DNA of 64,000 nt from Glaucostegus cemiculus (taxonomy: Eukaryota), in NCBI GenBank assembly GCA_976551045.1, contig CDPCPM010000014.1, forward strand, positions 7,998,001 through 8,062,000. Direction: 5' to 3'. The stretch's first letter is position 1. Every line of letters starts with the position of its first letter. Made by a program: the position numbers and the translations under genes. Of this stretch, positions 692-48,899 are shown piece by piece. Under the pieces are notes generated by a model that saw only the letters and a list, made by a program, of their open reading frames with translations, searched no databases and was not told the origin of the DNA.

Positions 692-3600
692 AGAACCAGA
701 GAGATGAAAAGTGCAGCTTGATCCACCCGGTTTAAACAAGAATGGGCGTTTTTTTTTGCCGGAAGTGATTAGATGGATGTTCTGGGCTGTGCTGTGCCCG
801 GCTCCAGCTTGCTCGGAGCAGTAAGCTAAGGCTGGAGGTTCTAACAGGCACCTGACTTGGTTCTGGGAAGCAGTTGTAGTAAGCTATTAATAGGAGCATC
901 CTGAAGGTGTCTCTGTTTGGTGAATTGTCTTTCTAGCCAGCTTTTAGTCTTCTGGACATGTTTCAGCCCCTTGTGGAGGTTCCCAGCTCTGCTTCCACTG
1001 TCAGAAATAAACATTTTTAAAAAAGGGAATTAAAGTTACTACTATGCAAGTCTCGCCATGAATATAATCAGGTTATTGACCACTCTACATTTCCTTTTTT
1101 TGACTGAATATGTTCAAGGTATTTGTCAACCATTATTCATGTGGGTGATCTGTTTTGAATGGGAACGGTGGGCTGGTTGTTTTTGTGCCGTCGTCTCCCC
1201 TTATCACTTTTCCTCTTTATTAGCTATCTGTTTCATTCCTTTTTTCATTCCCTTTCTTCGTCTCTTTCACATCCCCTCGACCAGGTTCTGTCTTTCTGTA
1301 TCTGTTTTTCTGTTACAGAAGTCCTTTCCCTCCTTGTACAGGAATCTAGTCCACCACCATGTTCAGGACCAAGGACAGAATATCATCCCTGCTGATAGTG
1401 GAAGTCCGGGCTAACTGTACTAAATCAATGCCCACGATTGGGCAAAAGGCCAACATTAACAGGATATTTCAGACTGTCGCTCAAATTAGCACCACTTTGC
1501 TGTCAACAGCGTAGACAAACACATAGGATGCAGATTTCAATAATATTTTTTTTAAAAAGAAACTCAGAGAGACAAAACTAACAAGAAGTGACCGGATTTC
1601 GTGGGTGACGAAAAACTGCCATCTTATAGGAAAAACACACATAAGCAGAGAGAAGAATGGCGGGAAAGAATGTGTTTACAATTAGGAAACCCTTTTCTAA
1701 AAGTAAAAGGCAATCAAAAAGATTGAAACGCAATAATGATGGTCATTTTTGTCGCTTATGTATGTTGCTGCTTCACGTAATGCACGCCCATTCCTTACCA
1801 GCATCAGTTCCCCATGCTTTTTTGACTCACTAAAATTAAAACTCTACATATTTCCATTCCTTTATTCGTTACATTTTATTTTAAACCTTTATCTTCGATT
1901 ATTTAACTACACTGGAACGGTGTGAGATTTAGGGAAGGGGAATATCATCATCAACAACTATAATAAGAGCAACCTGCAATTATATAAATCAATCTTTCTA
2001 AACGCTTACTAGGTAAAGCCGTTCGTGCACAAAACTATGTAAAGCATGTGTCAGGGATAAGAATAAGTAGGACATTCAATCTTTCTTTATTTTTCGTGAA
2101 AGGCTTGCGTTGTCCTATTCACCCCAGCAATGTGAGATGGTGTTTGCAAGGTATTCCATAACTAGGATCTGAAGGTGTGGGGGTTATAGCTGGAAATGTA
2201 CGGTGTATCCCATTATTCCACAAGACAGCACAATGGTCATTGGTCACTGGTCAGGTGATGTACGATGCTGGTTAATTCTTTAGGAAACTTTTTTACCTAC
2301 CTTCTATGACGAATGCATTGGTAACGTGTCGCCTTGGTCAAAACCTTGCTTGCAACGCAGTTAATTTCTGTGATGATTTGAGTATAATAGTTAATTGTGA
2401 CCATAGTTCTTTTTAAAGAAAAGTTTATCTCTTTTTGTCCCTTCCCGGATATATATTCGGTCTCGTTTGATGCTAAGAATTAAAACAGAAAATGAAATTT
2501 TATATTTGGCAATGGTTTCCCAAAGACAGTCCTCCATAGAGTTGACTTGATAACATGTTTTCTAAGAGAACTCACGTGGAATTTTATTATTCTAATTAAG
2601 CAAGTAGATGAAATGTACAAAATAAATCTTAATGGCAAAAAGTTTGTTCTGGCCTTCCCTTTATAGGATACATTTCCAAGACACAGCTGGAGTTTAGAGA
2701 ACCACATGACGATTCTCCTGGGATTAACTGTCATAATAACTTCGAGTATATCCCACCCTGACATAGTATTGTTATTTTTTTCATGATTCTCTCCCAAAAT
2801 TTTTTAGTCTGCTGACAAACGAAAATCGCATTGAAACTGTAACTGGGCGAAAGTGTTTTACAGAATCATTTCAAATGGAAAACACCTTTGCACACAAAAT
2901 AATTGGCGTAGTGGTGGTGGGATAGTGGGAGTGGGACGGGAAACTTGCACTTAAAACTGCATCACATCCCTCAGAAATGTCCCCGAACTTCCCACAGACA
3001 ACGTATTACTTTGAAGACTGATGTTATGTACATAGTTTTAATATAGTAGAAATAATATATAACCCGGTCTGTCCTTTGACTATTTTGGTGTATCGACGCT
3101 TACAGTGTATTAAGGCTTTCCCTGTCACTGAACGGTATTCCGATCTATTTTCCATAGTCCTGCAACTATTTTGTGTCTTGCCCCTCGTTTATGGCGTCGT
3201 TCTCCTTAAACTCTCAGTTTCTGCACGTCCTTTCAACCTCTGTTGTCTTCCCAACCCCATCCTCATTTTTCCAAATTTTGCCCTGGCTGCTTTAGTTCTC
3301 TCTTTGTATTTCTGCTTGTTCTCTGATATTACAGACGTCTCAACGACCCCCCCCCCCCCCCCACCGTAAGCTTTGGTCATTGACGCCTGTGTCCGATATG
3401 TATAGGCAAAGGTTAAAAAATCCAGACGACCGAGTGGCATAAAATAAAGAGCTTTAGAAACATTAAAATCAAAATATTAATAATTGTAACACCGAACTGA
3501 CAGAAATAATTCTACATAATAATAAAAAAAGAAAATAATTGATTCTCAATGGCAAAGCAGAAGTCAAATCAGGTTATAACAGTAACATTTTTGAAGCAAA

Positions 3601-4455
3601 TACAACCAGTTAAGGTACCTCAGGCGAAACATTTCCCTACGTTCTGGACCTGGAAGTGCATCACTTCAATTATTTGCTGCTATTTTTTTCAGAATAAAAG
3701 TTTAACAAAACTTGATTATTGCATTTACTTCTTTAATTTTTTTTTGCGATGACAATACAAATGTTAGGGCTCAGGTGTATTATCACAACCAATAGATCGG
3801 CAAACTCGAAATAAGAAAGTTCTTTCCTACCCCCTCAAGGAACTTGCTGTGTTCTGGAAGTGGCTATTGTGCAAGTGATTAACTTGATATTTCATTGTTA
3901 GGAAAATTATTGAGCGATAACAGTTTTTAGCGCAAAACACAAATATACTTAAAACACGTTATACATCCCAGTGTGTAGATACCCACACACGAATACACAC
4001 AGGTGTACTAGCACATAAGAAGGGTTATGTAGTCAATCGCCTGTGGATAGAACGAGGCCACCAGGAACTGGCGCCAGTTGACTGGGAACTATCCTGTCAA
4101 CCGCCCTCAAAATCCTATCTGTTTAGATAAGATAACCTGTCATTCTTATATATTCCAGGGGATGTAGGCCCATTCACACTAACGTTCAAATCAGTGCTGC
4201 TCATCAAATTTCCTCAAATATTACTAACAAGAGAACTAAAGTTTTTATTGTCTTTAGAATTAGACGAACGTTTTTCTACTTCTTGTTCCAATAGAACATA
4301 GAATTCTGTTCAGACAATTGATCATATATGGCAGATTAAAATGATTGGAGTTAACTCTCTCATCAAATTCTGTCTGCGACCTCATTCCGTTTTTTCCCCA
4401 ATATTGTGCTCAATCTCAAGTAACGCTCTCAATATTTTTCTCTTTTGGTTTTTAA

Positions 4456-26150: not shown

Positions 26151-28419
26151 TTAATAGATCAAAGGAAGTGAATTAGGACCATCCCCTCACCCAACCCCAC
26201 CAACAACTGATAATCATCTTCCAATAGCTAACCCCAGGACCACAAACAGGAGAATAATCTGCGAGCCGCTTTCCTGTTGTTTTTGGTCATATTTCTTTCA
26301 GTGATAGAAATGGCCCTCTGAGTAAAGGGGTCTTGGTTGTCAGATGCCGCAAAATTACACAATCGTTTCAGAAAAAATTCTTTTGCAGGCACACCATTTT
26401 CATATTGGCACCACTACTACGCTAAATTACAAAGCCACAGATCTTGAATCATAAGTGTGGCACAACAGGGTCTGTTCATGCACTGTGCTATCATCCTGTG
26501 GTGGTGTGGGACAGGACCAGCTCCTTTAGTGGGTATGTCAAGTGGCAGCAAATTAAAAAAAGTAATTGCCACTGTGTTCAGCTCCATCTGAATTGACACA
26601 GTGGTCGGCAGCCAATAATTCCACTCTGGAGACAGTCTAGTAATGGCAGAATGCCACGCTTCACAAATTATTTTACTAAAGCATGTGTTTCTGTCCTTAA
26701 TGATGTTGGGGAGATGAACAGACTTTTCCTCTGCAAGTTTAGAAGTATCTTTTGGAATTACTGGGTAGGCGTGAATTGGGAGGGAAATGAGGGGATGTCC
26801 CTTTAAATTTCCTGCACTATGTGTAGCAATTCCAACCGTGCATATGACAAAAAGTAAAGGCAGTTGTTGATTTGTTTGAGCATTCATACAATGGTACTGA
26901 TCTTCAACTTTTGTCTGGTATTCACCATGCCTGCACTATTCATAATTACTTGTTCAAGTGTGAGTAACATTGATTCAACTGGTTCTGGAAATCTACCTCT
27001 ATACTTTATTGGCCCCTTCAACACAATGCACTTAATAATCAGAAAGAAGCTGAATCACTTTCTCTTCAATCAAATAGATATACACTTATGCATTGGGAAT
27101 GTAAAGTGAGAACAAAAGTGGTGCCTATTGTTTGCAGATGATCTAGCTGTTCTTTCAGAAATTGGTGGCATATTATTTGAATTACACATCTTAAGGAGAG
27201 TGTGATTGTTAAACAGGTTTTTGTGAAGCTGGAAGTTTAAATAGAACACTTGCCATTTGGTACCATTTTATTCTCAAGTTGCTTCAGTTCCTTACTCGTG
27301 TGCTACTGCTGAGTATACTGAAACTGGGACATCTTTTATTTTATATCTCTGTGTAAACCACATGCTTTTCCGATGAATCACATAATTGAAGTTGAAGTTC
27401 AACAGTGCTATTGTCATCATTTCCCTGTAAATACTGGGAATCAGAAAAATTACAAAATTGCATTATATTCCCATGGTTCAGAGAATGAATGGTCATGAGA
27501 AAAATTTTAGAAAACACTGATATTTTTTGTTTATTCTTTGCACAGATTTTTAGTTTGTGAAGGAACTAGTCCATATTTGTCTTTGACAAGTGTTCCTTGG
27601 GTTTCTACCTCTGAGAACAAAGCTACACAATGAATCAAAATTGCCAATGTGTGTGCATGTTTTGTTTTCAGTGTTCTTTGTGGCTGTACTTCTGTTCTTA
27701 GTTTTCTTCCAGATTGGTTGTATTTAAGTCCCTGCTTTCTCCATTTATATTGCTCATTTCCTCCACTTACACACTGCAGAAAACTCGCTCTTTCTAAATT
27801 ACTTGTTTTCTTGCAATTGCACACAACCAAAAATATTCACATTACAGCAGAACACATTTTTCAGAGAGAGTACAACAGCAGGATCATCACCATCAAATGC
27901 AGCACAGAATAAACACATGAGAAAAGAAAATCAGCAGCAATAAAATATTACACTTGTTCCAACAGCACGGTGCACTGCACAGGAACCCTGAAAGTGCTAT
28001 GCATTCCTAACCTGTGCTGCTTTTTACTGTACCCTAGCCAGTAGAATTCCCATGGTTAGAAGAGTCCAACAAAATGCATGAGCTCAGGATTCTGGTTCTG
28101 GTGTAAAAACACTGCAATTTCAATAAGTTGATATATAGTCCTCCTTCTTGCACAGTCAGATCGTTGGTCAGCTGTTTATTCTCCTGAATAGGTCTTTATC
28201 TGTCCAGGATACTAGCTTTGAAATTTCTCCATAAACCTCACCACTTCTGTAATTCTCTCTTTCTTTCAAGGTGCTCCATAAAACTTACCTCTTTAACCAA
28301 ACATCGGCCTTAATTTTTTCCTTTGTGGCTCATATTGAATTTTGTGATAATGCTTCTGTGATGTGCTTTGGGCAGTTATAGTATGATGGTGATTGTAGAG
28401 GGTTATCTATATGATTACT

Positions 28420-31400
28420 CTTCCTGTCCTTCCATTGATTGGCTTTTGATTGCTGTTCTGTTGTTGCCTGTTCTCTGATTGTTGTTGCTTCACCCTGCCC
28501 TCCAGTTGGTGCTCCATTTACTGATCTCTGATGCTTGCTCATTTAGTCAATTGCCTGTTCTAGGAGCACTGTCTGCAATCTGCTTTTTATTCCCTTGCCC
28601 AAGACTCTGCTTTGTGCTCCCTTCCATCCTATTTTTCCATGGCTCACTCTTCTGACTGCTGTTTCATTGCCTCCCCTCCCTGACTCTTGTTCAACTGCTT
28701 GTTCTCTGGACATTGTCTCGTCAGCTCTGAAGCATACTCTGTTGCTTCAACACTGTCTGTTACATTGATTCTCTCTATTTGTTGCTGCATTGCTCAATGT
28801 CTCTGAATATTTCCACACTGCAATTTTTCCTCTCATATTTACTAACATGCACACTCTTGGCATGCTGTGTGGTTACTTGCTCTTTTGTTGGTTCTTTTAA
28901 TTGATTGTTGCTCTGTTACCCATTCTTTGATTGTTCGTTTGATGTTCACTCACATAATTGTTGCTCTGTCTTCTCATGTTATGCCTTTTCCTGATTTCTG
29001 ATAATTGATCCAGTCAGTCCTTTCTTTGCTTGTTGTTCCACTACCCTCCACCACTGATTATTGCTTCATTACTAGCTATATCTCACTGTTGCTACATTGT
29101 ACACTCATTCTAATTGTTACTATTTTGCTGGCTGTTTAGACTTGTTTCTTTGCCCATTTGTTGCCTGTTTTTCAAACGTTGCTTCATTGAGAACTCTCTC
29201 ATTGTTCTTTTGCCTGATGCCTCTGATTACTGCTCCACTGTATACTCTGTCATTGTTGTTCCATTACTCACTCTGTTATCTTGCTGCATTCGTTGATGTC
29301 TTCATTATTGTCCCTTCTTTCTGATTTGTTGATTGTACGTTCTCTCCTATTTATTGATGGACTCAATCTCATTATTGGTTTCATTGTCCAGTCAGTCTGA
29401 CTGTTGCATCACCACAATGCTTCCTGTTTCTAATTCTATTCCATATTCTCCCTGATTGTTGCTATCTTTCAGATTCCTTTTACTTTGCATAGTACCTCTA
29501 TTTATTCCTTTGCCTCTTTTCTCTCCTTGTTTCTTCATTATCCTCTATTTGATTGTCGCTTCACTGTCCACTCTCTGAAGGTGCATTTCTCACTCTGATT
29601 GCTGTAATGTCTGCTGTAACATTGCTGAGCCACCCTTAATGTTGCTCCAGTGACTGAATGCTCAGAAGTGTTGTTCAGTTGTCCATACCCCTATTGTTCA
29701 GCCTCCCTAATTGTTCCTCCAATATCTATGCTGTTTGTCATTTGCTGTATTAATATCTCTCCTTGATTGCTATTGTATGAACCACTCTCTGTTTAATTGT
29801 TCATGCCCTCTCTAATTTTAGTTACATTGCTTGTTCTTTCTCAGTGTTACTCTGTTGCCCTATGTTCTTGTTTTTGCTCTGTAGTCCATACCCTCTCATT
29901 GCTGATCATAATGGCACTTTGGTTGTTGGGCTGTTACTCATTCACAGATCTTGTTCTAATATTGCTACCTGACTTTACATTTCAAGTTCATAAGTCCTTA
30001 TTCACTGCATTCCTTCTCTGATAGTTTCTCCACTAACATCTCTTAATGTTGAATTGATTAACAGTCCCTTCATTTATTGGTTTATTCCTTCTGCTCTAGC
30101 TGATGATCCATTGCCTGTATTCTGACAGTTGATCCATTGCTACTGCTCATTGACTGTTGCACTATTGCTTGCTTTCTAGGACTGTTGCTCTATGGCAGGC
30201 TCACTGATTTCTGCTCCATTGCCTGGTCTCTGATGTCACTCTGTTTCTGTTATCTGGTTTTGGTTCCATTGTCCCCTGACTGATTGTTGCCCAGTTGTCT
30301 GCTTTCCATTTGTTGCTATTTTTCTCAATCCTCGTTTGTTATTTCATCGCTGCTTTTGGATTATGTTCTCTTTCTCAGTCATACTTGTTCACTGATTGTT
30401 TTGCTAAGGCATGTTCACTGGTTGTTACCACATTGCTTGTTCACTGGTTGTTGCTCCACTGTATGTCCATTGCCTTCTAACCAATTGTTGCTCTGCTGTC
30501 TGCTTTCTGATTGATATTATTTTTCTAGCTATCTGATTGTCATTTGTTTGCACACTCCTTCTTTGCAGTTCTTTCTTTCATTCTCACTGATTTTTGCTTC
30601 AGTGCCTGCTGTCTGTGTCACTGCATCACACACCATCATTGATTACTGCTGTGCTGTTATGTTCTGTCTCAGTGTTACTTATCTACCTGGAAAATAGGGT
30701 TATTGTCCCACTGTGCACTTTGTCACCCTCTCACCAATTGTTTTGCCACTTCCTATGCTGAGTAATTGTTGCTGTGTTACTGACACTGAATGATTTTTGT
30801 TTGTTGCCATTCTCTGTTGTCCCTCTGATATCTGATACCTGCTCTGATTGTTGCTCTGCTGCCTGGTCTCTGATTGTCACTTGAGATCTGTTCTCTGATT
30901 GTTACTCTGTAGCCTTGTCTCCAATTGTAGCCTTGTCTGATTGTTACTCTGAAGCCTGCTCTCTGATTGTGGCTCTGTTGCCTGTTCTATGATTGTCACT
31001 GTGAAGTCTGTTTTCTGTTTGCTATTCCATAGACTGCTGTCTGATTCATTACTCTGAAGCTGTTCTGATTGTTGTTCCATTTTCTATACTTCCATTGTTC
31101 TTCTGAAATTTGCCCTCTATTTTTTAAATTGTTGCTGCTGTGTGCACTCAGTTTAATGCTCTGAAACCTGCTTTCTACTTGTTCTTCCATTGCCTGTACT
31201 CTGATTCTAGCTCTGAACCCTGCTGTTTACTGTTCCACTGTTTGCACTTTTATTATTACACGGGAACCTGCTCTCTCATAGTTTCTCTGAAATCTACTGG
31301 TTGATTATTTCATTAGAACATAGAACATTACAGCAAAGTACAGGCCCTTCAGCTCTTGATATTGTGCCGACATTTTATCCTGCTCTAAGATCTACCTAAC

Positions 31401-34400
31401 CCTTCCCTCCCACATTGCCCTCCATTTTTCTATCATTCATGTGGCTATCTAAATGTCTCTTAAATGACTCTAATGTAACTGCCTCCACCACCTCCATCTG
31501 CAGTGCGTTCCACACACCCACACACCAACAAACTTACCTCTGACATCCTCCCTGTAACTTCCTCCAATCACCTTAAAATTATTCCCCCTCATGTTAGCCA
31601 TTTTCACCCTGGGAAAAAGTCGCTGACTGTCCACTCAATTTATTCCTCTTATCATCTTGTACACCTCTATAAAGTCACCTCTCATCCTCCTTCGCTGCAA
31701 AGAGAAAAGCCCTAGCTCACTCAACCTATCCTCATAAGACATGCTCTCCAATCCAGGCAGCATCCTGGTAAATCTCCTCTGCACCCTCTCTAAGGCTTCT
31801 ACATCCTTCCTATAATGAGGCGACCAGAACTGAGCACAATACTCCAAGTGTAGTCTAACCAGAGTTCTATAGAGCTGTGACATTACCTCGTGGCTCTTGA
31901 AGTCAATACCCCGACTAATGAAGGCCAACACACCGTACGCCTTCTTAACAACCCTATCGACCTGTGCAGCAACCTTGAGGGATTTATGGATGTGGACCCC
32001 AAGATCCCTCTGTTCCTCCACACTGCTAAGAGTCCTGCCATTAACCTTGTAACCTTGTAATTCTTCCTTCAAATTTGATCTTCCAAAGTGTATCACTTCA
32101 CACTTTTCTGAGTTGAATTCCATCTGCCACTTACCATTCCAGCTCTGTATCCTATCAATGTCCTGTTGTAACCTACAGCAACCTTCTACACTATCCACAA
32201 CACCACCAACCTTACTGTCATCAGCAAACTTACTAACCCACCCTTCCACATCCTCATACAAGTCATTTATAAAAATCACAAAGAGCAGGGGTCTCAGAAC
32301 AGATCCCTGCTTAACACCACTGGTCACTGACCTCCAGTCAGAATACGCTCCATCTACCACCACCCCCTGTCTTCTATGGGCGAGCTAATTTTGAATCCAC
32401 ACAGCCAAGTTTCCCTGGATCCCATGTCTCCTGACTTTCTAAATGAGTCTTCCATGAGGAACCTTATCAAATGCCTTTCTAAAATCTGTGTATACCACAA
32501 CCACTGCTCTACTTTCATCAATGTGCTTTGTCACATCCTCAAAGAGTCTACACTTTGAGTCTCCTCAAATTGTCTACACTTCCATTGTCACTTTGAAAGC
32601 TACACTCTGATTGTTGCTCTATTGTCCGTTGACTGTTGTGTTGAAGCCCTTGCACTCGTTATGGCCCTGATGCCTGCTCTCTGATTGTTGTTCCATTGGC
32701 TGCTCTGATTATTGCTCCATTGCCAGCTGTCTGATTATTGTGTGACTGTCTGCTCTGATTGTTGTTTATTGCCTGCTCTCTCATTGTTCCATCATCCACT
32801 CTCTGATTATTGTTCCGGTGCCTGCTCTAAGTGTTGCTCCAATGCCTGCTCTCTGATGGTTGGTCTATTATCTGTCTTCTCATTGTTTTTGCTTCGCTTG
32901 CTCTGATCCTTGTTCGGCTGCCTGCTCTCTAGTTGTTACTCTGAATTTGCTCTCTGTTTATTGCTCTGAAACCTGCTTAGGTTGTTGACCCATTTTCTGC
33001 ACTCTCAGTATTGCACTGAAATCTGCTCTTCAAGTGTTCGATTTTCTGTTCTCTGATTGTTGCTTTGAAATCTGCTCTCACAATTTTGTCCTTGTGCCTG
33101 CTTTCTGATTGTTGCCCTGTTACCCACTCTGATTGTTGCACAATCATTCACTCACAGATTGCTACTTCAGTGCCTGTTGTCTCTGCTTGTGCTCTATTAG
33201 CTGTTCTCTTTGTTTCTTGCTCTAATCCTTGCTGTCTAATGCCATTCCATTTTCTGCCTTCTAATTATTGCTACAATGCTACTTTCTGGTTGTTCTCCAC
33301 ATCCTCCTCACTAGTTGTGTACACTTGCTGGTTTTTGCTGTTTTCATTGATTATGTTCTTTGCCTGCTTCTGGTTCTTCGAAGTATTCAACAAAATATTG
33401 CCCAGATTAGTTCCTCTCTGCCCAGTCTAATTCTGACTCTATTGCCTACTTTGAATATCATTCCATTACACTCTGTCTATTGTTCTATTGCCCACGTTGG
33501 TACTCTTCCAGTTACCTATCCTCTTTTATTCTTCTTCCATTGCCTGCACTCTGTTGTTCCACTGCCTGCTCTCTCTCTCTCTCTCTCTCTGACTCTTGCA
33601 CCGCTATCATCTATTTGATTGTTCCTGTGTTGTTATTCTCTGATTGATGTTCTTCTACTGATTTCCAGGTTTTTAGCTTGTGCCTGCTCTTTCCACTTGT
33701 TATTTCATTTCCAGATAATGGACTCCAGTTCTCTGATTCCATTACCCATTCTCAAATTATTTTCTCATTGCCTATATCCATATTGACACTATATTACCTG
33801 CTTTTATAATATTGATCCATTTCCTGTTCTCATATTGTTTGGGCCATCACCTACTTTCTTGTTTCTGTGTTTCCTGCTCTGATATTGTTTAAGTCTATTG
33901 CCTGCTCTTTGTTTCCATTGTCTGTTATCTTATTGTTACACCGTTGTCCGCCCTCTGATTGTTATTCAAGTACTAGTTTCACCGATTTCTCACTCCGTTG
34001 CCCATACTTTCTGATTGTTGTCTTAAAGATAATTTGCTGATTGTTGCTCCATGGCACTTGGTTTTTATTGTTCCAAGGGTGCTGTGGCTAACTGTTGTTC
34101 CATTGGCCACTTCTGATAGCTGTTCCAATGCTGGCCTTGCTGAATGTTGCTTTATTGCCTTTGCTTTCTTACTGTAGCCCCATTGTTGTCTATTTATTAC
34201 TTGAGCACCTACTAATTGTTACCTTGTGGCATACTCTCTCAATTTTATTCCATTGTTCACTTCCCAATTCTAATTTATGGAATCAAAATCATTATGGTAC
34301 CAATGGCTCATCAAACTCATGTTGGTAATGTTCTCTCTGACTGCTCCTGGATTAGGCATTCTCTCTGATTCTGCTTGTAATAACTATGTAAAAATAGCTG

Positions 34401-35740
34401 GTAAATGGTACTTTCGTCACTTGTGCAAAGAATTCAGTTGAATTGATTCCTTATCATAGGGGTGACTTGAGGACATGGCAGTTGTCATTGTCTTCGGTTG
34501 CTTGCACCGTTGCCTGTTCTCTAAGAATCACACCATTGCCTAGTGTCCACTGATAGTGCTGTGTTCTGTTCTGTAGTTCTCCCTTGGCATTCTCTGATAT
34601 TGTTGCCTTTCACTTGATTATTGTACCCTTGCCCATTTTCTGCTGGTTGCACCATTTTCTGTTCTCTGATGATTGCCCCATTAACCATTCTCTGATTGTT
34701 TCACCATTGCCTGATTGTTGTATCACTATCTGTTTTCTGCTCTCAGATGGCCACAACACTGCTTGTTCTCTGATTGTTGTCTGGTCTTCAGATTTTACTG
34801 TAACTGCTGTTTCTAAATCACATTGTTTTGTTCACTCTCCGATGATTGCTAAATTGCCCTTTGTCTGTGACTGTTGCTCTATTCCCTACACTGTTTTTTG
34901 CTCTTTCCCCTGCTCTCTGATTGTTGTTCTGTGCCTGCATTTTGAATCTTAATCCATTGCCTGCTGTCTCAGATTGTTGCTGCAATGCATGTCCCTTGAT
35001 TGTTCAGTTTTTAGTCTCTGATGTTTGCTAAGTTGTTGGCCTTTCCTGTTATTTCACTGCATTTTTTTTGTTTCCTCTTTTCCAATTTGTTTCTTTTTGC
35101 CTGCTCTTCAACTGGTGCTCTTTAACTTGGATTCTATTTGTTGCTTTATTTTCTTCTCTCTAATTTTTCCTTCTTTGTACATGCTCTTTGTTCTGTTTCC
35201 CTCTTCCATTGATTATTGTACTGTTGCCTGTTCTCTAGTTGTTTGTTTTCTGATTGTTGTGTATCTCTCATTCGTTGATAGGTGTTTGTATTAGCCACTC
35301 CTCAACTGCTGCACATGGTTCATCCTCTGAATTTCCTAAGTTGTTCAATCAGTCTGATCATTGCTGTTTCCATTCTCTATCTAATGTTAGTTTATTACCT
35401 GTCACTCTTTTGCCCACTCTCCCTAATTAATGCTCCTTCCCACACAGACTCTAATTATTAATGTGTTGTCCTGTCTGTCAGACTGTGCTTTTGATTTGTT
35501 AATCTTTTGCTCATGCTCCTATATGTTGAGCCTTTACCCACAATCTGATTGGTCATCAGTTACACACTCTCCCTGATAGTTGATCCTTTTACCATTCTCT
35601 GCTTGGTGACCAGTTGCTTGGTCTCTGATTGTTGATGCTTTTCCCATTATCTAGTGATCTTTGACTATTGTTCCATTCTTCCCTCTCATGTGCTGTTTCT
35701 CCATCAGCTATGCACTTCATTGCATTAGTCTTCTACTCTC
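28420..35740 (+). repeat. ~7-kb degenerate satellite, unit ~24-26 bp (CTCTGATTGTTGCTCYRTTGCCTGCT), interrupted by a CR1
   Basis: Recurrent CTCTGATTGTT / TTGCCTGCT motifs throughout, best preserved at ~30840-31250 and ~32600-33150; plus strand is strongly T/C-rich and A-poor. Confidence 0.85.
31314..32545 (-). mobile_element. 5'-truncated CR1/HER1-type LINE with a relatively intact RT fragment
   Basis: ORF 31635-32363 (242 aa): SGVKQGSVLRPLLFVIFINDL...SKFADD...RLHLEYCAQFWSPHYRKD; 3' end ..AATGTTCTATGTTCTA at 31314. Confidence 0.95.
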
Positions 35741-38700
35741 TTGGACTGTTCCTTTGGACCACAGAAGGCATAATGAAAAAAAGAAAGCAAAAAGGTACAT
35801 ATATTTTAGGATAAAGCAGAATAAGTGGAGCATAAAATAGGAGTGTGAAATCCAGTTGAAAAGATAAAATTGACGAGTGACAAACAGTGAGAGTGAAAAA
35901 GTATACAGAAGAAAAGGAGAAACTATGGGAATTTTGAGTGAAATGTGGGTCTTTGCAACTGTGGATCTGCTTCAGAACACTCAGAAATATAGTAAGCATT
36001 AGGGCCTGGATTTTCAATGGAAAAATGCAGCTTTCTTTATTTTATGTGAAGGTTGGAAGCCAGCAGAGAAATGAAAGCTGTTGTGCATCACTTTATTTAC
36101 TATGAGAAAGAAAGGAAAGGTGTGCAACAGAGAAATAGACGAATTCTTCAAGTTTTTGTTGCACTCAATTGCACTTAAGTTTCGGAGAAAAAGAGAAATA
36201 ACAAAACTTTGTGAAAGGAAGTGAGTGACAGGATGATGAGATCGTGGGAGCAAGAACCCACTTCCTGCCCATCTCACTTTTGAGCACTGTGGATCAGATC
36301 ACCTGAGCTGGTACCCTTTGGGGCAAAGGATGGGCAATAATGCAAAGAGAAAACTAATTCCTTGTGATTGGCCTCTCATATCCAAATGGATTAAAGTACC
36401 ATGTTGACAGTAGACCTTGTTAATTAGATTTGGAGAAGACCAGGGTCTGGCAGTATGATCACCTTCTGAGCCATAACAGTTCTATGATTCTGTAACTATG
36501 TGGAGCCAATCTGCACTGCTGTGCTAATTCTTCAGTATTAGCTGTGATGGAATGTGGCAGATTGTTGAAGATCCTTTCCTTGCTGAGCTCTGGAGCAGTC
36601 TAAACACCAAACCTTACAAATGCAGAGGCAGCTGCTCGGCTTCACTAATGTGTATTTGTGCAATAAGTAATAAAACTTGGAAAATAACCATGGAAACAAA
36701 GAGTATTATAAAAGTATTATAAAAATTACATGAAATGTGTAGAGAAACCAGATGTCAAGGAAAATAAGTTGAAAATACCAAGGAGCAATAGAAATTGGAA
36801 AGAAAAACAAAACCACAGAATGTAGCAATCAGGAATGTATTCCATGAATTATGGAGAAATATATAAGTGAATGAGGAAAAATAGAGGAATAACTTTTCAA
36901 TAATGATACCTCAAACACCCAATACCAGACAATTAGTTTAAAAAAGTGTTCCACAGCACATGCTAAGCTGTTGCAGTGATAGTAGTAGATGGCATGATCT
37001 GTGATCGGTCAGCATATTCAGGCAGACTCTTGATGGAGGAAACACCATCTAAAAACAGATGAGTTATTCCTTGAATTAGGTGCGATCTAAGCCTTAGCTT
37101 CAGTAAAGAACAAGTTAATGAAAGAGACACTGGACAGTTCAACATCCATCACCAGAGTTCAGCTCCTTTCCTTAAGGAGGAGGACAGTCTCATTAGCTCC
37201 AACAAAATTTGACTGATGTTGGTAATGACAATGCTGATAATGACATTTTGATAATAGCTCTGCTTTACTGGACTGGATTAAATGATAAAACATTTAGTTA
37301 CTTTTTGGCTGTATTTTGCTAACAATCATTTGAAAATAACAGTTGGAAAAGCCGTCAACACTAGTTTCAGCAGTACTTCATTAATCTGTACAGACAGATA
37401 TACAGTAGAGAGAAGGGGAAATGGGGGGAAATTATGAGGTCTGTGAATTGATAGAATTCTACATAACAAGACCTTGTAAAATCCAGTTTGTAGATGGAGT
37501 GAAGAGCCTTGTGACTCAGTGTTTAACATAGGATCACATAGAAGGATTTCACTGCAGTTTATTGTATATAGTCTTCTATATTTGTGTCCTGATTCCATTG
37601 TATGCAACAAATGCTATGATGTTAGCATTTGAGATTATTGACCCTATGATGTGTTTTGACATAAATACATCTATGTGACTATTGACCACACAATGGGATA
37701 AGAGCAGGGGAATTACAAGCAATAATCTAATCAAGGGATCAGAGGGCATTCATAAACAACAAGAGTGAAGTGAGACCAGTTCAGGAACATAATCTGCACC
37801 TGCAGATTGGATTATAGTTTTGACCTGTCATGCATTGATGTTTCTGTCTTGTATCTTTACTGAAATTTTAAAGTAGGTACAGTGAGATTGCTTATGGTTT
37901 GTACTGTATGACTGTATGTTCTGGGGTAGGAGAAAAGGCAAGACTTTAACATCCACTTGGAATCCTCTGCCTTGGAGCCTTATAAAAGTTTGTGTCCTAT
38001 ATTTATTTATTGTAATGTTTTCCCAGTCCATACTCACAAGATAAGGGATGAATTAAATTCAGAAAAGCAGGTGAAGGGTCATCACCAAGGTTGAAAAAGA
38101 ATAGAAGAAAAGATGAAGGATCCCAAGAGACAGTGATTAGGAAATTGTAAGAGTGGGTTTGAAAAATTATAAAGACTGGACTGTGACTTACTTAAAAAGC
38201 CCACAATCACTCTGAATCCACAAGATTGCTGATGGGTGCATGGTGTAAAATTTTACCGGAACATTAAACAATTTGCAGAGATCAGTTGTTGCTTGCTCAG
38301 TGTTGGTAACACCACTTGGAAACATTAGCACTGGGTGTGGGTGATTTCAAAAGGCAAGATATTTACGTAAGAAAAATTAAGTAGATTGCATAGATATTTA
38401 TTTTTTTCCTTTGTTACCCAGGTCACTTCTGAGGGCAGGGAATTTTTGGTTAGTCAGCTAATAGGAAGTAACTTTTGGCCACAGTACAGTAGCAATCACT
38501 GCTGAATGTTGTATCATTTAAAATGCAGCTAGATGTAATAAGTGGAGCCATGTTCAGCGAGTGGAGTGGTAGTATCTTGTTCAGCCTTTTCATCTGAATT
38601 GAAAGAGCTTTGAAAAATATCGATATATACAGCATGCTTGCTGAGTTTTCATCAGGAGCATTCCAAGGCAAAATAATGGACAGCCCAGATTTCTACTCTG

Positions 38701-43111: not shown

Positions 43112-43112
43112 T

Positions 43113-43693
43113 TGTTGTGAGAAAATGTTCTTTTGAGGTCTTAAAGGAAAAGGACTCTGGGCACAGTCTTTGGAGTTTTAAAAATGATTTATTCGCAAAG
43201 ACAAATGCAGGAACAGAATGAAGTGGAATGGATGAACACACACACACACACACACACGCATGCACACACACACACACACACACTAACTGGTTACAAATGA
43301 TCGGGGAAAAACAACACAATGCTTGAAGCCCCTGATTCTGTGCAAGCGTTGGCTCTAAACCATCAGGAATCTACTCAGGCTGTTCCTAACCCCTATGGAA
43401 GTGCACACTCCTTCCAATGGTCCCTTCGGTGTGGTTTCGATTCCTGCAGCAATCAGTAAGAGACTGAACCATGTACGTGCAGCATTTTTTATAGTGCTGG
43501 AGAGCTGGGTGGAGCCAGCCCAGGTGATTCAAAAGGTCCAGTAGCTCATGACCAGGTACAAAGGTGTGTACAGAAGCCAATGGTTAAGAGTGTGCACGAA
43601 TGGATGAATGGAGCTAGACCTTGATTGACAGTGGTGTCGGTTTTGACCGGTGCTCAATGGTGTCATGTGACAGCCATGACCTTCCACACTACA
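43113..43693 (-). repeat. 3' LTR (581 bp)
   Basis: Minus strand TGTAGTGTGGAAGG...CACAACA; TATAAAAA at ~43486-43493, AATAAA at 43188-43193, internal (CA)n; aligns with 47059-47644. Confidence 0.92.
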
Positions 43694-43705
43694 TTCCACC
43701 CCTTG
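43694..43705 (-). promoter_or_regulatory. Polypurine tract
   Basis: CAAGGGGTGGAA immediately before the TGT start of the 3' LTR; typical class III ERV PPT. Confidence 0.85.
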
Positions 43706-43775
43706 AAAGTAACACCACTTGCCAATCATAGGAATAACTATCACTAAGCTAAGAACCATGCATCAGTGTGCAGTA

Positions 43776-45006
43776 CTAATGGAAGGCAGAAGTGGTTCTA
43801 ATAATCTGACAAGCACAGCACAAAATACAGATAGCTATAACAATTAGAACGAGGGCAGTGGCTCAGTGGATGACAGTTGCCCACCATCTCCCCAGTGACC
43901 CAAACGGCCACCAGCTTCCCCATGAGGTGTCGTGCTGGAGGAGCTGGTTCCTCACTTTTTGTATTTTAGCCACCCAGTCCTGAATGTGAGCAGCCAGGTT
44001 AGTGATGTTGTTGGACTCATCATGGATAAAGGTAGAGCATCCTTACCAATCACTGTACAGGTGCCATCGTTCACAGGGAGTAGGTAGTCCAGGGCCATCG
44101 ATTCTGCAGGGCGACCAACCTGATGGCCACCAGCTTCACTGCCGTCATCCCCAGGGCATCCTTGGTGTGTTGCAGTGACATCTTCATTTCGTCAGCCAGT
44201 GTCTGGAGCATGCTGGTCATCCGGATGACTTTATGGGACAGTTGGGTCGTGCCATACGTGGGAAAGGCTATCATCCAGAATCTCTCTACCGCTGTGACGG
44301 CTCTTTTGTCCCAATGGCCACTGTACGCTGGGTCCTCCCCAAGGTCATTGAGACCGTGGATGTAGGGCACGACAAACGCTAGAAAACAGCAACCGTACCA
44401 GCTTGTGGGGAGCCACAAAGTAGGCACGGTGGCCACAAATCCAGTGGGTCCCGTTCAAACTCCAGGGGGCCCCCAGTTTAGTGGCCCCGCCGGCCGTGGT
44501 CACTGAGGTCCCTGGGTACCAGTTTCGCTCATAATCACTATGGCCAACTGGAAAGGTGGAGCTGTGCTCATTCTGGAGTCTGCACCACCATTCCCTGGGC
44601 TTACTCAGCGGCTGCGGGATGACTCTGAGGGTCGGGACTCAGGTGGAGGTCAAACTGTAGGAAGGGAAGTACCATCTCCTGAAACACCCACCCCACCGGG
44701 AATCGCTGGGAGGAATGTCCTGTAGTGGTGAGGGGAGTGGTGGGGAACTGCCATCTGGCCCCTCCCCAAACCAAACCTGACAGATGCAAAAAGTCTGTGT
44801 AAGCAGTTCATTTAGAGATCATCCAGGGGGATCGGTGTAAGTGGTAGAGCTTCACCGGCGAATGCTGGGGTTCAGACGCCAGTCCAGCAGTCTGACCGGT
44901 TGGAGGTGTTGGCGAACTCGTAGGCGATTCGGAGGAAGATGTTAGCAGGCGTTCGAATGCCAATTGTTGCAGTGAGCAGAAGGAGTGACTGAAGTAGTGC
45001 CATCAT
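43776..45006 (-). pseudogene. env: Retroviral env (gamma-type TM), disrupted by stops and frameshifts
   Basis: Signal peptide MMALLQSLLLLTATIG, then NIFLRIAYEFANTSNRSDCWT; furin-like WDKR/AV; LQNR-MALDYLL immunosuppressive domain; CTVIGK(E)C(S) CX6CC remnant (both after correcting 1-nt frameshifts); Trp-rich WGSWWPFGSLGRWW; TM ATALVLIVIAICILCC. Confidence 0.88.
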
Positions 45007-45046
45007 CCTGTAGGGTGTGGGGGGGGGGAGGTGTTGAGGAACAAAC

Positions 45047-45441
45047 TCATTCTCGGTGGGTCAGGCGTTGGTTATGAAAGCAGGATAGGTTAGTTTGATC
45101 TGGAATCGCGACCCACCAGGTGTCCCTCGGACCACGCGCAATGACTTCTCCCTTCTGAGGGGTCCCTGTGGCTGTTGGACCTACAGTCTCCCTAAGTCTT
45201 CAGTCTCAGGGGGTTCGGGGTTTTGTAAGTCGGGTGGTGGGGAGTGTGCCAGATGGAGGGATAACGGGGATCCCCCTAGCCCAGTGGGCCGTGTATTTAG
45301 CAGGTTGACGGCCTGCTGTAGCACGTTCTATCACCCCTGCAGTGTGCGGGAAGGCATTAGCGTGAGTATTGTTTCCTCCAGCAGGCCTTTCATTCTTTCA
45401 ATCAGGCCCAATGATTGTGCACCGTAGGGGAGACTGTTTCA
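45047..45441 (-). pseudogene. pol: Integrase C-terminal half (pol remnant)
   Basis: LPYGAQSLGLIERMKGLLEETIL...QG**NVLQQAVNLLNTRPTGLGGSP (core with the catalytic E) and KGEVIARGPRDTWWV (ERV-L/S-type C-terminal domain); stop at 45047-45049. Confidence 0.8.
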
Positions 45442-45471
45442 GGTGGGGGAGGGTGGAGACAGTATCAGTGT

Positions 45472-47013
45472 CTACGGGGGCAGACCACATGGTCCGGCCA
45501 TTGGGGGTGCCCCCGTGTCAGACCTGGACCCAGAGTGACTGTGGGTCTTCCCCCAGCCTGGCTTCCCCCCACAGAGCTCCTTCCATTGTGCGTGGAGAAT
45601 GGGGGTCGGGAGCACACCTATGCTGGCGGGGTCCACCCCTGCGCGCAACAGGTCCAGGTACATCTGTTTGCGTGTGAGATGAGAGGTGGTGTCCCCAGCC
45701 CTCGTCTCTGCTCTACAAACTGGGGTGGGTGCCCCCTACTGCATGTACTCTAGCCTTTCTAGGAGAGTGATGGCTTCCCGTACGGTCTTTCCACTAGCCG
45801 GTCCCATGAGGGGCAGGACCACTGGCCTCAGGTTGGGGCAGTTGGTGGCAACCAGATACCCACCTAACACGCTGGTCGCTGTGGTATTTTCTAACAGCTC
45901 GAGGTCACCAGTCCCCGCATAAATGCCAGTCACTAGTGCCAATTCCCTGATGACACTGGTGCCCTCACTGACTGTGCTCTGCTGTGGCTGCCTATATAGG
46001 TCCCACTTGAGGAGGGTAGGGTACCGGACCCTCATGGTGGTCACTACTCAATCCCACAGGGTAGCGGTGTCTCCGATCCCTTCCGGTGGTGCCCATAGGG
46101 CATTATTAATGCTCTGTTGATCAGACAAGCTCCCCAGGGCGCTTGCTTTCTGGTGAGACAGGCTCACGTTGGGAGCCCCTCACCCCACAGTCGGAGCAGC
46201 CATACAGCCATCTGTTCACCCGACCACTGGCGGTACTGATCCTCCAGCTGGGTAAGCTCTTTAACAGAGAAGTCCAGGGTTTCCGTGGTTGCAGCGGGAC
46301 TGTGCGCATTTTCCCCTACGGAGGTCTCATCCTGACTCCCTTCCCTTCCATGGCGGACCTGGGACCATGTCACGACGGGATGAGCTTGCAGGGGTTTGGG
46401 TGCCTAGGGTGGAAGGCGGGTGTGATGGGACTCAGGCTCTTCGGATGTCCCCTCCTCATCATTATCCATCCGTATGTCGCCATCCTCCAGCCATGCGTCC
46501 AGCTTGTTGCTGCGCTGGACCAAGGCACAGATCTTGAATGGGTCCGCCTGCCAGCCAGACCTGCAGGCTGCCTGCACTTGCTGCAGCTGAATCAGCCTGC
46601 AGGCGATGTCAGTAACCCTGGCCTCGAGGTCGTTGGCCCATGTCTGTGCAGTCTGAATTGCCTCCTGCAGTGTACAGCATTGCTGCTGGAGCACCTCTAT
46701 CTCCCTTTCCTTCTGGAGACATGTACTCTGCAACTGGCTAGTAATCCCCACCTGGCTTCACAGGAGGGACACGAGTAGTCAGAAGGCACCCCCTTGACTC
46801 CCTTTGGCTCTGGGGAACCCCAACTTCTGGAGGAGGGTGACCACGTGGTACCCCAGTTTCTCACCATGTGGATCCAACTGCTCAGCCCAGTCCACTGGTT
46901 TACCGTGGTCTGCCAGCATGCTTGCAAATCCCTCACTCTCATCGATCCACCCGGGAATCCTCTCCTCAGTGCCTGCACTGGCCTTCTTCCCCATTCCAAA
47001 ACATCCTTCCCAT
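45472..47013 (-). pseudogene. gag: Class III retroviral gag, frameshifted
   Basis: MGRMF/GMGKK..IPGW..LADHGKPVDW; coiled coil LQKEREIEVLQQQ..; WLEDGDI; DFSVKELTQLEDQYRQWSGEQMAVWLLRLWGEG; TVSEGTSVIRELAL; MYLDLLRAGVDPASI..PTPILHAQWKEL. These resemble ERV-L/S Gag blocks; no CCHC knuckle seen. Confidence 0.82.
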
Positions 47014-47038
47014 GTCTGTGTCAAGCCAAGACCTTAAG

Positions 47039-47056
47039 ACCCTGCTCGCAGCACCA
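47039..47056 (-). promoter_or_regulatory. Primer-binding site complementary to tRNA-Ser
   Basis: TGGTGCTGCGAGCAGGGT, 2 nt after the 5' LTR; 16/18 match to the recalled vertebrate tRNA-Ser(UGA) 3' end ACCCTGCTCGCTGCGCCA. Confidence 0.8.
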
Positions 47057-47058
47057 AA

Positions 47059-47189
47059 TGTTGTGGGAAAAGGATCTTTGAGGTCTCAAAGGGCAAGGAC
47101 TCTGGGCACAATCTTTGGAGTTTTAAAAATGATTTATTCACAAAGACAAATGCGGGAACAGAATGAATGGGAACTGATGAACACACACA

Positions 47190-47237
<48 letters not shown>

Positions 47238-47644
47238 CACAGAAACTGGTTACAAATTATCAGGGAAAAAATAAAACAATGCCTGAACCCCTGACTCTGT
47301 GTAAGCATCAGCTCTACGCTACCGGGAATCTACTCAGGATGCTCCTAACCCCTATGGAAGTGCACACTGTTTCCAGTGGTCCCTTGGGTGTGGTTTCAAT
47401 TCCTGCAGCAATCAATAAGAGACTGAACCATGCACAAGCAGCATTCTTTATAGTGCTGGAGAGCAGCCCAGGTGATTCAAAAGGTCCAGTAGGTCATGGC
47501 CAGGTTCAAAGGTGTGTACCCTCTTGGCCAAAGGTCAAGAGGGTGCACTAATGGGTGGGTGGAGCTAGACCTTGATTGACAGTGGTGACGCTTTCGACCG
47601 GTGCTCAACGGTGTCACGTGACAGCCATGACCTTTCACACTACA
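47059..47644 (-). repeat. 5' LTR (586 bp)
   Basis: Minus strand TGTAGTGTGAAAGG...CCCACAACA; internal (CA)/(CACG)n; GTCACGTGAC E-box; right flank GGTAT. Confidence 0.92.
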
Positions 47645-48899
47645 GGTATGGATCAAATTTCTGGAAATGCACATCATGGCCTCAAAGGATCTGACTGTTT
47701 AGTGATTGGTTTCACTGGATTCACTGGATGGAGCTGTTCATAAACATGCTGTGTTGCACGTGAGAATTTCTATGCCGTTGAATATAAAGATCAAGTCAAA
47801 TGAACTGCATGTGGAAATTCAAATTGGACAAGTTGATGTGGCAGCCTTTACTGGCACAAGGCAGAAAGATAGTCTAGACTAAATATGCCAGGTTATAATG
47901 TTGACAGGAAGAATTGGTCAAGTGGTAGACAGGACTGACTAGCTTCAGTAACAAAACTGAAAGTGAAAATATATAAAAATGCAAATGTGAGTTCAGGGAA
48001 ATATCCTTGGATGATATATACATAGACTTCCAGAAGACATTTGATAAAATATTGTGGCCCAGATATTCACTGGTGCTGCAGAGTGGATGTTAACAGCTCA
48101 TTAGGTAGTGTGTCAGTGACTGTTTTGGTCACATGCCTACCGCCACAAAATTCAGCTACACCTGAGGCCAAACTGAATGGCCCTTACACACCTTCCTCTG
48201 CATACTGTGCCTTTATGGAACATACAGAGGAAAATATCAGGTAAATTCAGGAGTGGATGTGCATCAGAATCCTGGAATGGGGGATTCAAGGGATAGTGGT
48301 TGAGTCAGGGTCTTGATAGAGGGTCATGAGTCAAATTAGAGCCTTCATCAGATGTTGGATTAGGGATATGGAGGTGCAGAGCTGGGGAATGATTGAGGGT
48401 TCAAATGTCTGAATCAGGAATGACTGAGGGCTCAGTGAGTGGGTGAAAGAGGTCAGTACTGTGATGGTGGGGTGAAAGTGGTGCCTAAAGGAGAACAGGT
48501 GTATAAGGGACCTGTGAGGGGTTTCCAAGCCGTGGGCTGGGATCTGCTCAGGAGCAGTGATATTGAAATATGATTTTAATGAGCCACTTTTAACGTGCAC
48601 AATCATAATTGGACCTCAGAACAACATGACCTAGTTTCCCTGGCAAGGCTCAAGAGGAGGGTTTCACAGGGAATACTTCACTCTATGTGTATCTGATGCA
48701 GAAACTGCATCATCTGGACAAACAGCTTTTATGGCCACAAGTGCCTGGTCAAATTGCTGCAGTGGACAATTTGATATGGAAATTGTTGCAATCACATTCC
48801 ACTCCAGAAATAAATCATTTTTATTTATGTGGTGCTGAAAGAACAGTGGAACATGTACAAAATTCTGGGTCTGATAACTACTGATGCAGTACATGCAAC

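Follow-up and report, generated by a model that had tools for sequence, protein, structure and literature searches.

Endogenous retroviruses (ERVs) that join a class III gag-pol to a class I envelope are described from Xenopus tropicalis and from mammals. XtERV-S of X. tropicalis carries a class III gag-pol, an env with a class I transmembrane subunit (TM), a primer-binding site (PBS) for tRNA-Ser, long terminal repeats (LTRs) with TGT/ACA ends, and a 5-bp target duplication; it shows an in-frame stop between gag and pol, a YIDD motif, no Cys-His box, a CWIC motif near the start of the surface subunit, a short env, and deleted copies in its host (PMC8278194). HERV-S/HSERVIII is described with a class III Pol, no zinc finger, no dUTPase, and a class I env related to PABL/PRIMA41 (PMC4724089). 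These traits recur in an ERV family of the elasmobranch Glaucostegus cemiculus, treated here from a provirus in a stretch of 64,000 nucleotides (the window; assembly GCA_976551045.1, contig CDPCPM010000014.1, positions 7,998,001 to 8,062,000 of the forward strand). The window copy has lost nearly all of pol, very probably by a one-off deletion, and the same genome contains a different pol-less form of the family that is a true non-autonomous lineage.

The likeness to the described systems is not complete. In XtERV-S, a young and intact element, the integrase is followed by a dUTPase-like segment (PMC8278194). The present family is old and broken and has only 444 nt between the integrase core motif and the env start; nothing similar to the dUTPase region of mouse ERV-L was seen in its sister copies. 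Its reverse transcriptase (RT) is 41-59% identical to protein P0163, which is probably the XtERV-S Pol, judging from its length and motif spacing (PMC8278194, Table 2). The main text of PMC8278194 makes no mention of sharks, skates, or cartilaginous fish. HERV-S is mammalian, and the likeness to it is one of published description only; the best Env match of the family is annotated as PABLB-like.

Class III elements were held in the original prediction to be described mostly from tetrapods. This is overstated, as 2,843 clade III RT loci, the majority there, are reported from six chondrichthyan genomes (PMC11089739). Clade Huo is reported from all major vertebrate lineages (PMC6001957), snakehead-like and epsilon-like lineages from the elephant shark (PMC4422223), and ERVs with gamma-type env from six cartilaginous fish (bioRxiv 2021.11.23.469661), in a study whose supplement may list the present family. 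The nearest named relatives are class III ERVs of stingrays and an electric ray (Hemitrygon XP_072911374 and XP_072891825, Hypanus P0203 and P0204, Narcine XP_069782200), available as automatic gene models only; no family description of them was found. A search mostly outside subscription journals, with no comparison to Dfam or Repbase, found no published description of the family or its derivative, and PMC10699275 and PMC10435555 add nothing on it. Deleted retroviral forms copied in trans by complete members are known as IAP 1-delta-1 and ETn/MusD in mouse and ERVK C/D in cattle. For IAP 1-delta-1, an in-frame deletion yielding a fusion protein that acts in cis is described, and for such forms in general, recombination between helper and defective elements (PMC6466679, PMC10924933).

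The interior of the window provirus (~3.36 kb) had been read as gag, the C-terminal half of integrase, and env. The order of these parts stands, but of the integrase core just the C-terminal end remains, and the last ~35 codons of gag are lost as well. The gag-integrase junction (45426..45431, minus strand) sits on a 6-base microhomology and places integrase out of frame relative to gag. About 2.75-2.85 kb are missing, namely the gag tail, protease, RT, tether, RNase H, and most of the integrase. The sister copies with pol that the prediction suggested looking for exist in the genome (2.85 Gb, 1,511 contigs; the best 40 candidates were scored in each search). In seven of 15 fetched copies, 2,745-2,847 bases separate the two halves, and in the rest 1,946-4,021. 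At least 97% of the missing interval is present in 11 of the 37 stretches fetched, counting the ruler, with protease, RT, tether, RNase H, and integrase recognized by Pfam. The hexamer or a close variant flanks the missing piece at both ends in most of the 15 sisters.

No second copy with the window junction was detected. A search with the whole interior yielded 46 matches, spread over 40 scored loci of 2,279 candidates, and only the window copy spans the query; most other loci match 1-1633 or 1628-3364, i.e. they break at 1628-1633. With a 300-base junction query, all 39 non-self matches cover one side only (best 40 of 759 candidates). The junction of the derivative described below, used as a positive control, returned spanning copies at nearly all 40 scored loci, so this kind of search does detect shared junctions where they are present. 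A 23-nt junction pattern allowing two mismatches occurs in the window and at one other place (control 1); the latter, on contig C76, proved on inspection not to be an element. In both the gag and the env tree, the window copy groups with pol-bearing copies. Because the sisters carry pol, and the junction is out of frame, lies on microhomology, and recurs in none of the 39 other scored loci, the loss is very probably a one-off deletion. A single event that joined two copies of the microhomology would have removed about 2.8 kb; it would have been either a template jump while the provirus was being reverse-transcribed or a loss after integration. The deleted copy seems to have left no detectable offspring and to have decayed since. 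Taken by itself, it is an ordinary element, an old and decayed provirus with a private deletion.

A different form of deletion has been amplified elsewhere in the genome. Loci L056, L057, and L061 align across deletions of their own, unlike that of the window copy, and a junction search, which is not a random sample, picked 41 loci of this type (L056, L057, L061, and L098-L135, e.g. C73:10510985-10515500). They keep gag and protease and short patches of RT, and RNase H and integrase are gone. Junctions J1, J2, and J4 were recognized in 31, 36, and 34 of the 41 loci, respectively, and in none of 14 controls. J3 is base-exact by alignment; an indel at this place in the reference copy explains why an ungapped test for it scored 1/41. 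None of the 41 derivative loci retains the env start, which all 14 controls possess. Exact 21-nt motifs matched the deleted form 30 times and the RT-bearing form 23 times (controls 0), a ratio that can only be rough. What looked like a gag deletion common to the derivative is really an insertion in the ruler copy L044 and was dropped. With shared junctions, no RT or integrase, and separate insertion sites with target duplications of their own, the L056 type is a true non-autonomous lineage. Mobilization in trans, which the original prediction had proposed for the window copy, does not hold there and applies to this form instead, which itself lacks the env start.

The L056 type would have kept gag and protease while losing RT, RNase H, and integrase in several steps; L061, which has only some of the junctions, fits such a stepwise loss. 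Because elements that lack RT and integrase have no means of inserting on their own, the copies of this type were presumably mobilized by enzymes of complete members (trans-complementation). The derivative env is polyphyletic, falling into several env clades, one of them beside the pol-bearing L038, L064, and L043, and the gag-protease part is closer to L044, L045, and L047. This mixed placement makes recombination with different helpers the likely cause. The env genes of the pol-bearing L035 and the derivative L057, both on C430 and about 0.7 Mb apart, are almost identical (branches 0.004-0.005), which reads as gene conversion or local duplication. As helper-dependent deleted elements, the derivative copies, not the window copy, resemble IAP 1-delta-1, ETn/MusD, and bovine C/D. 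Those are of class II and mammalian, however, and the 1-delta-1 fusion is gag-pol, whereas the L056 frame runs from protease through RT scraps to env. MaLR elements are of class III and non-autonomous like the derivative (PMC4724089, PMC6466679); they retain only traces of retroviral homology, while the derivative keeps protease and most of env, and the window copy is single.

The deletions of the derivative tend to keep the reading frame. Among clear calls at three junctions the frame is kept in 13/14, 27/28, and 23/23 (unclear: 14, 4, and 6), and at J3 in two of four loci directly; L105 and L110 have natural frames that run through all four junctions without a stop. One frame thus leads from protease through the RT scraps into an env lacking its start. 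Four in-frame junctions of four would arise by chance about once in 81 if frames were random. Two other deletions, in L052 (2432-2935, minus strand) and L061, also appear to join pol and env in frame, so that some of the bias may come from the mechanism of deletion. Pairwise ratios of nonsynonymous to synonymous substitution (dN/dS) in the derivative are 0.39-0.45 for env and 5' gag versus 0.62-0.69 for the protease end with the RT scraps and 3' gag, which is not proof of function because the column filter biases dN downwards and the derivative env is polyphyletic. It is possible, if slightly doubtful, that frame-keeping was selected, in that translation through the frame, or a Gag-Pro-Env fusion, aided RNA packaging or escape from decay. 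This would take in four successive frame-keeping deletions, an env without its start and signal peptide, and a lineage about as numerous as the RT-bearing copies.

The class of the family was assessed by scores and motifs, with the RT of sister L043 as query, the window copy having no RT. Stingray proteins reach 191 and 139 bits with this RT, a mouse protein taken to be ERV-L, in part from its dUTPase (its cluster members are from Mus), reaches 126, and P0163 reaches 115. The scores fall to 44 bits for murine leukaemia virus (MLV), 28 for foamy virus, and 24 for the weakest PDB match, 7sr6, presumably HERV-K. A quick RT tree of 52 rows, leaving out L035, P0006, and P0063 for short coverage, places stingray P0002 inside the family, both together forming one clade (Shimodaira-Hasegawa-like approximate likelihood-ratio test, SH-aLRT, 100). 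The best named stingray matches are 67% identical for RT and 75% for Env. Together with the tRNA-Ser PBS, the missing zinc knuckle, the gag-pol stop, and the class I env, these scores place the family with the ERV-S/XtERV-S type of class III, as had been suggested for the window copy. ERV-L proper, which has a dUTPase after integrase and no env, does not fit, as env is present and no dUTPase was seen. Ty3/gypsy was rejected, since all 16 PDB matches of the RT at E<=0.001 are retroviral by name, tether plus RNase H are present, and so is a gamma-type env. A scan of viral contigs with the RT gave no match. The evidence supports a class III core (gag-pol of ERV-L/ERV-S/XtERV-S type) with a class I-type env in an elasmobranch host. 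The stingray Hemitrygon also has a second class III lineage, whose gag-pol frames are long and open (P0164, P0006); over 139 residues the RT of P0006 shares 74% identity with the XtERV-S-type Pol, unusually close for ray versus frog.

For the window copy, a collapsed repeat in the assembly would also remove pol, and the family is multi-copy, with 77-86% identity between copies. A short-read contig, however, covers 45227-45553 without a difference, with 199 bases on one side of the junction and 122 on the other. Because it crosses the junction cleanly, the gap is taken as real DNA, although the run may be the assembly's own sample, and the break lies on microhomology that is seen in sisters; the chance of an assembly error is negligible. 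That the window copy belongs to a trans-mobilized gag+env family, as originally predicted, could be argued from its two LTRs, PBS, polypurine tract (PPT), gag, and env, and from the presence of a trans-mobilized deleted lineage in the same family. Yet its junction is spanned by none of the other scored loci and its pattern count is at chance level; it has none of the four derivative junctions, does not group with the derivative, and is out of frame at its own junction, which leaves this explanation very improbable. The one-off deletion is preferred, and uniqueness here holds among the best-scored candidates.

For the derivative, one old deletion might have been spread by segmental duplication rather than by retrotransposition. 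Thirteen near-identical pairs among the 41 loci (about 34 after duplicates), 23 loci without an LTR pair in the fetched stretch, and a short-branch group that may be duplicates speak for it. The partial junctions of L061 and the LTR pairs of more than 400 nt at 15 loci, among which only two pairs of loci share flanks, speak against it. The target-duplication scan tried many offsets and 4/5 can be chance, so only five loci with recognizable LTR ends were counted, and these all differ (5/5 in L106 and L113; 4/5 in L056, L098, and L101). For at least these five loci, segmental duplication is refuted by the distinct target duplications, and it probably explains part of the count; as an account of the whole lineage it is very improbable. 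A snakehead-retrovirus-like (ERV4) or class I origin of the family draws on the elephant shark lineages cited above and on the class I type of its env. Against it stand RT scores far higher on mouse ERV-L and the XtERV-S-type Pol than on MLV (a comparison without a snakehead sequence), the NCBI name Fv1-like of the related stingray Gag cluster, the 5-bp target duplication, and the lack of a zinc knuckle; such an origin is highly improbable. Some points nevertheless weigh against the favoured account as a whole: a few diverged copies with the window junction could escape best-40 scoring, the deletion may have come before or after integration, the left target duplication of the window copy is masked, and the RT tree is a quick search whose rows include no outgroup from class I, class II, snakehead-like, or gypsy elements.

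The predicted termini of the window copy were borne out. Its 5' LTR (47059..47644, 586 bp, minus strand) runs from TGT to ACA with TATAAA at 47452, AATAAA at 47138, and a TG/TGCG microsatellite; the 3' LTR (43113..43693, 581 bp, minus strand) has the same ends. The PBS TGGTGCTGCGAGCAGGGT (47039..47056, minus strand) is complementary at 17 of 18 positions to the 3' end plus CCA of host tRNA-Ser(CGA/TGA), in line with the tRNA-Ser primer proposed earlier, and the PPT CAAGGGGTGGAA (43694..43705, minus strand) was read directly from the sequence. A probable 5-bp target-site duplication lies at 47645..47649 on the 5' side, its length taken from sister copies; on the left, N masks all of it but base 43112, and this base agrees with the 5-mer on the right. 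The LTRs are 88.9% identical (503/566 aligned columns; Kimura two-parameter distance, K2P, 0.12), giving ages of ~120 million years at 0.5e-9, the rate assumed in PMC10699275, or ~275 million years at 2.2e-10, assumed in PMC4422223, a spread too loose to use.

Between the termini, gag, the integrase remnant, and env are all broken by stops and frameshifts. The ERV-L/Fv1-like gag (45432..47013, minus strand) has no zinc knuckle, carries WLLRLW at 46202, and matches stingray class III Gag by tblastn over 46988-45562; it is 58% identical to stingray P0002 over 196 aa and 27-30% to P0164/P0168. The integrase remnant (45007..45431, minus strand; traced at 45432-45050) shares 53-54% with stingray and XtERV-S-type integrases and 40% with mouse ERV-L, and no dUTPase follows it. 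The env of about 410 codons (about 43776..45006, minus strand) has a gamma-type (class I) TM and is 68-72% identical to stingray P0203/P0204. Pfam at curated cut-offs gave no match in 14 stop-to-stop frames of the element, the gene calls resting on sister copies and named homologues, and Rfam gave none in the window.

All family copies inspected are broken. LTR divergence is 0.08-0.20 in the eight sisters with both ends; 5-mers matching in at least four of five positions flank six of these eight, two with an offset of 1-2 bases. The tRNA-Ser 3' motif has 149 pattern matches in the host genome (control 0), ten of ten checked lying in tRNA-Ser CGA or TGA genes; many of the 149 form inverted pairs about 6 kb apart. 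The absence of a CCHC knuckle noted earlier extends to the family: one match occurs in 38 loci by six frames, on the non-coding strand of L035, and none in the window. Gag and pro-pol share one frame with a stop between them, TAG in 10/38 loci and TGA in 4/38 (one duplicated group), and lie in adjoining frames in L043; HYIDD occurs in several copies, and in the window copy both features are deleted. Sister env genes show CWIC, the furin site RDKR, the immunosuppressive domain LQNRMALDYLL, and CX6CC, all degraded in the window copy; they score 44-45 bits on Pfam TLV_coat, and their best solved match is syncytin-1. In L053 (C54:11300500-11310000), the gag half is inverted relative to pol-env. 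Segmental or tandem duplicates include L046 and L065-L067 (C67), L059-L060 (C108), and pairs on C408, C162, and C246, and because copies were multiplied in this way, search counts exceed true insertions.

The elasmobranch host proposed from the sequence agrees with the stingray matches of RT and Env and with a CR1-type piece of a long interspersed element RT in the window (31635-32384, minus strand), whose best matches are zebra shark and bamboo shark gene models (73%); two CR1 matches labelled Proteus mirabilis look like contamination. Window positions 28000-36000 show a strong T + C skew and degenerate tandem arrays of 24-26 bases. Many short pieces of the family, mostly at 90-95% identity, were met in sequencing runs of three other organisms.

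In sharks and rays, class III loci had been counted, and no description at this level was found in the literature searched; the family extends to these hosts the XtERV-S/HERV-S design, a class III core with a class I envelope and a serine primer. Its derivative shows the behaviour of a parasite of a parasite, known mainly from class I and II elements of mouse, cattle, and koala, now for class III in an early-branching jawed vertebrate. The frame-keeping deletions suggest, in a form open to test, that translation contributes to the spread of non-autonomous elements. Should the selective explanation be true, the derivative would be a class III parallel to IAP 1-delta-1 at the level of fish, and a route towards MaLR-like elements caught in the act, with env swapped between helpers.

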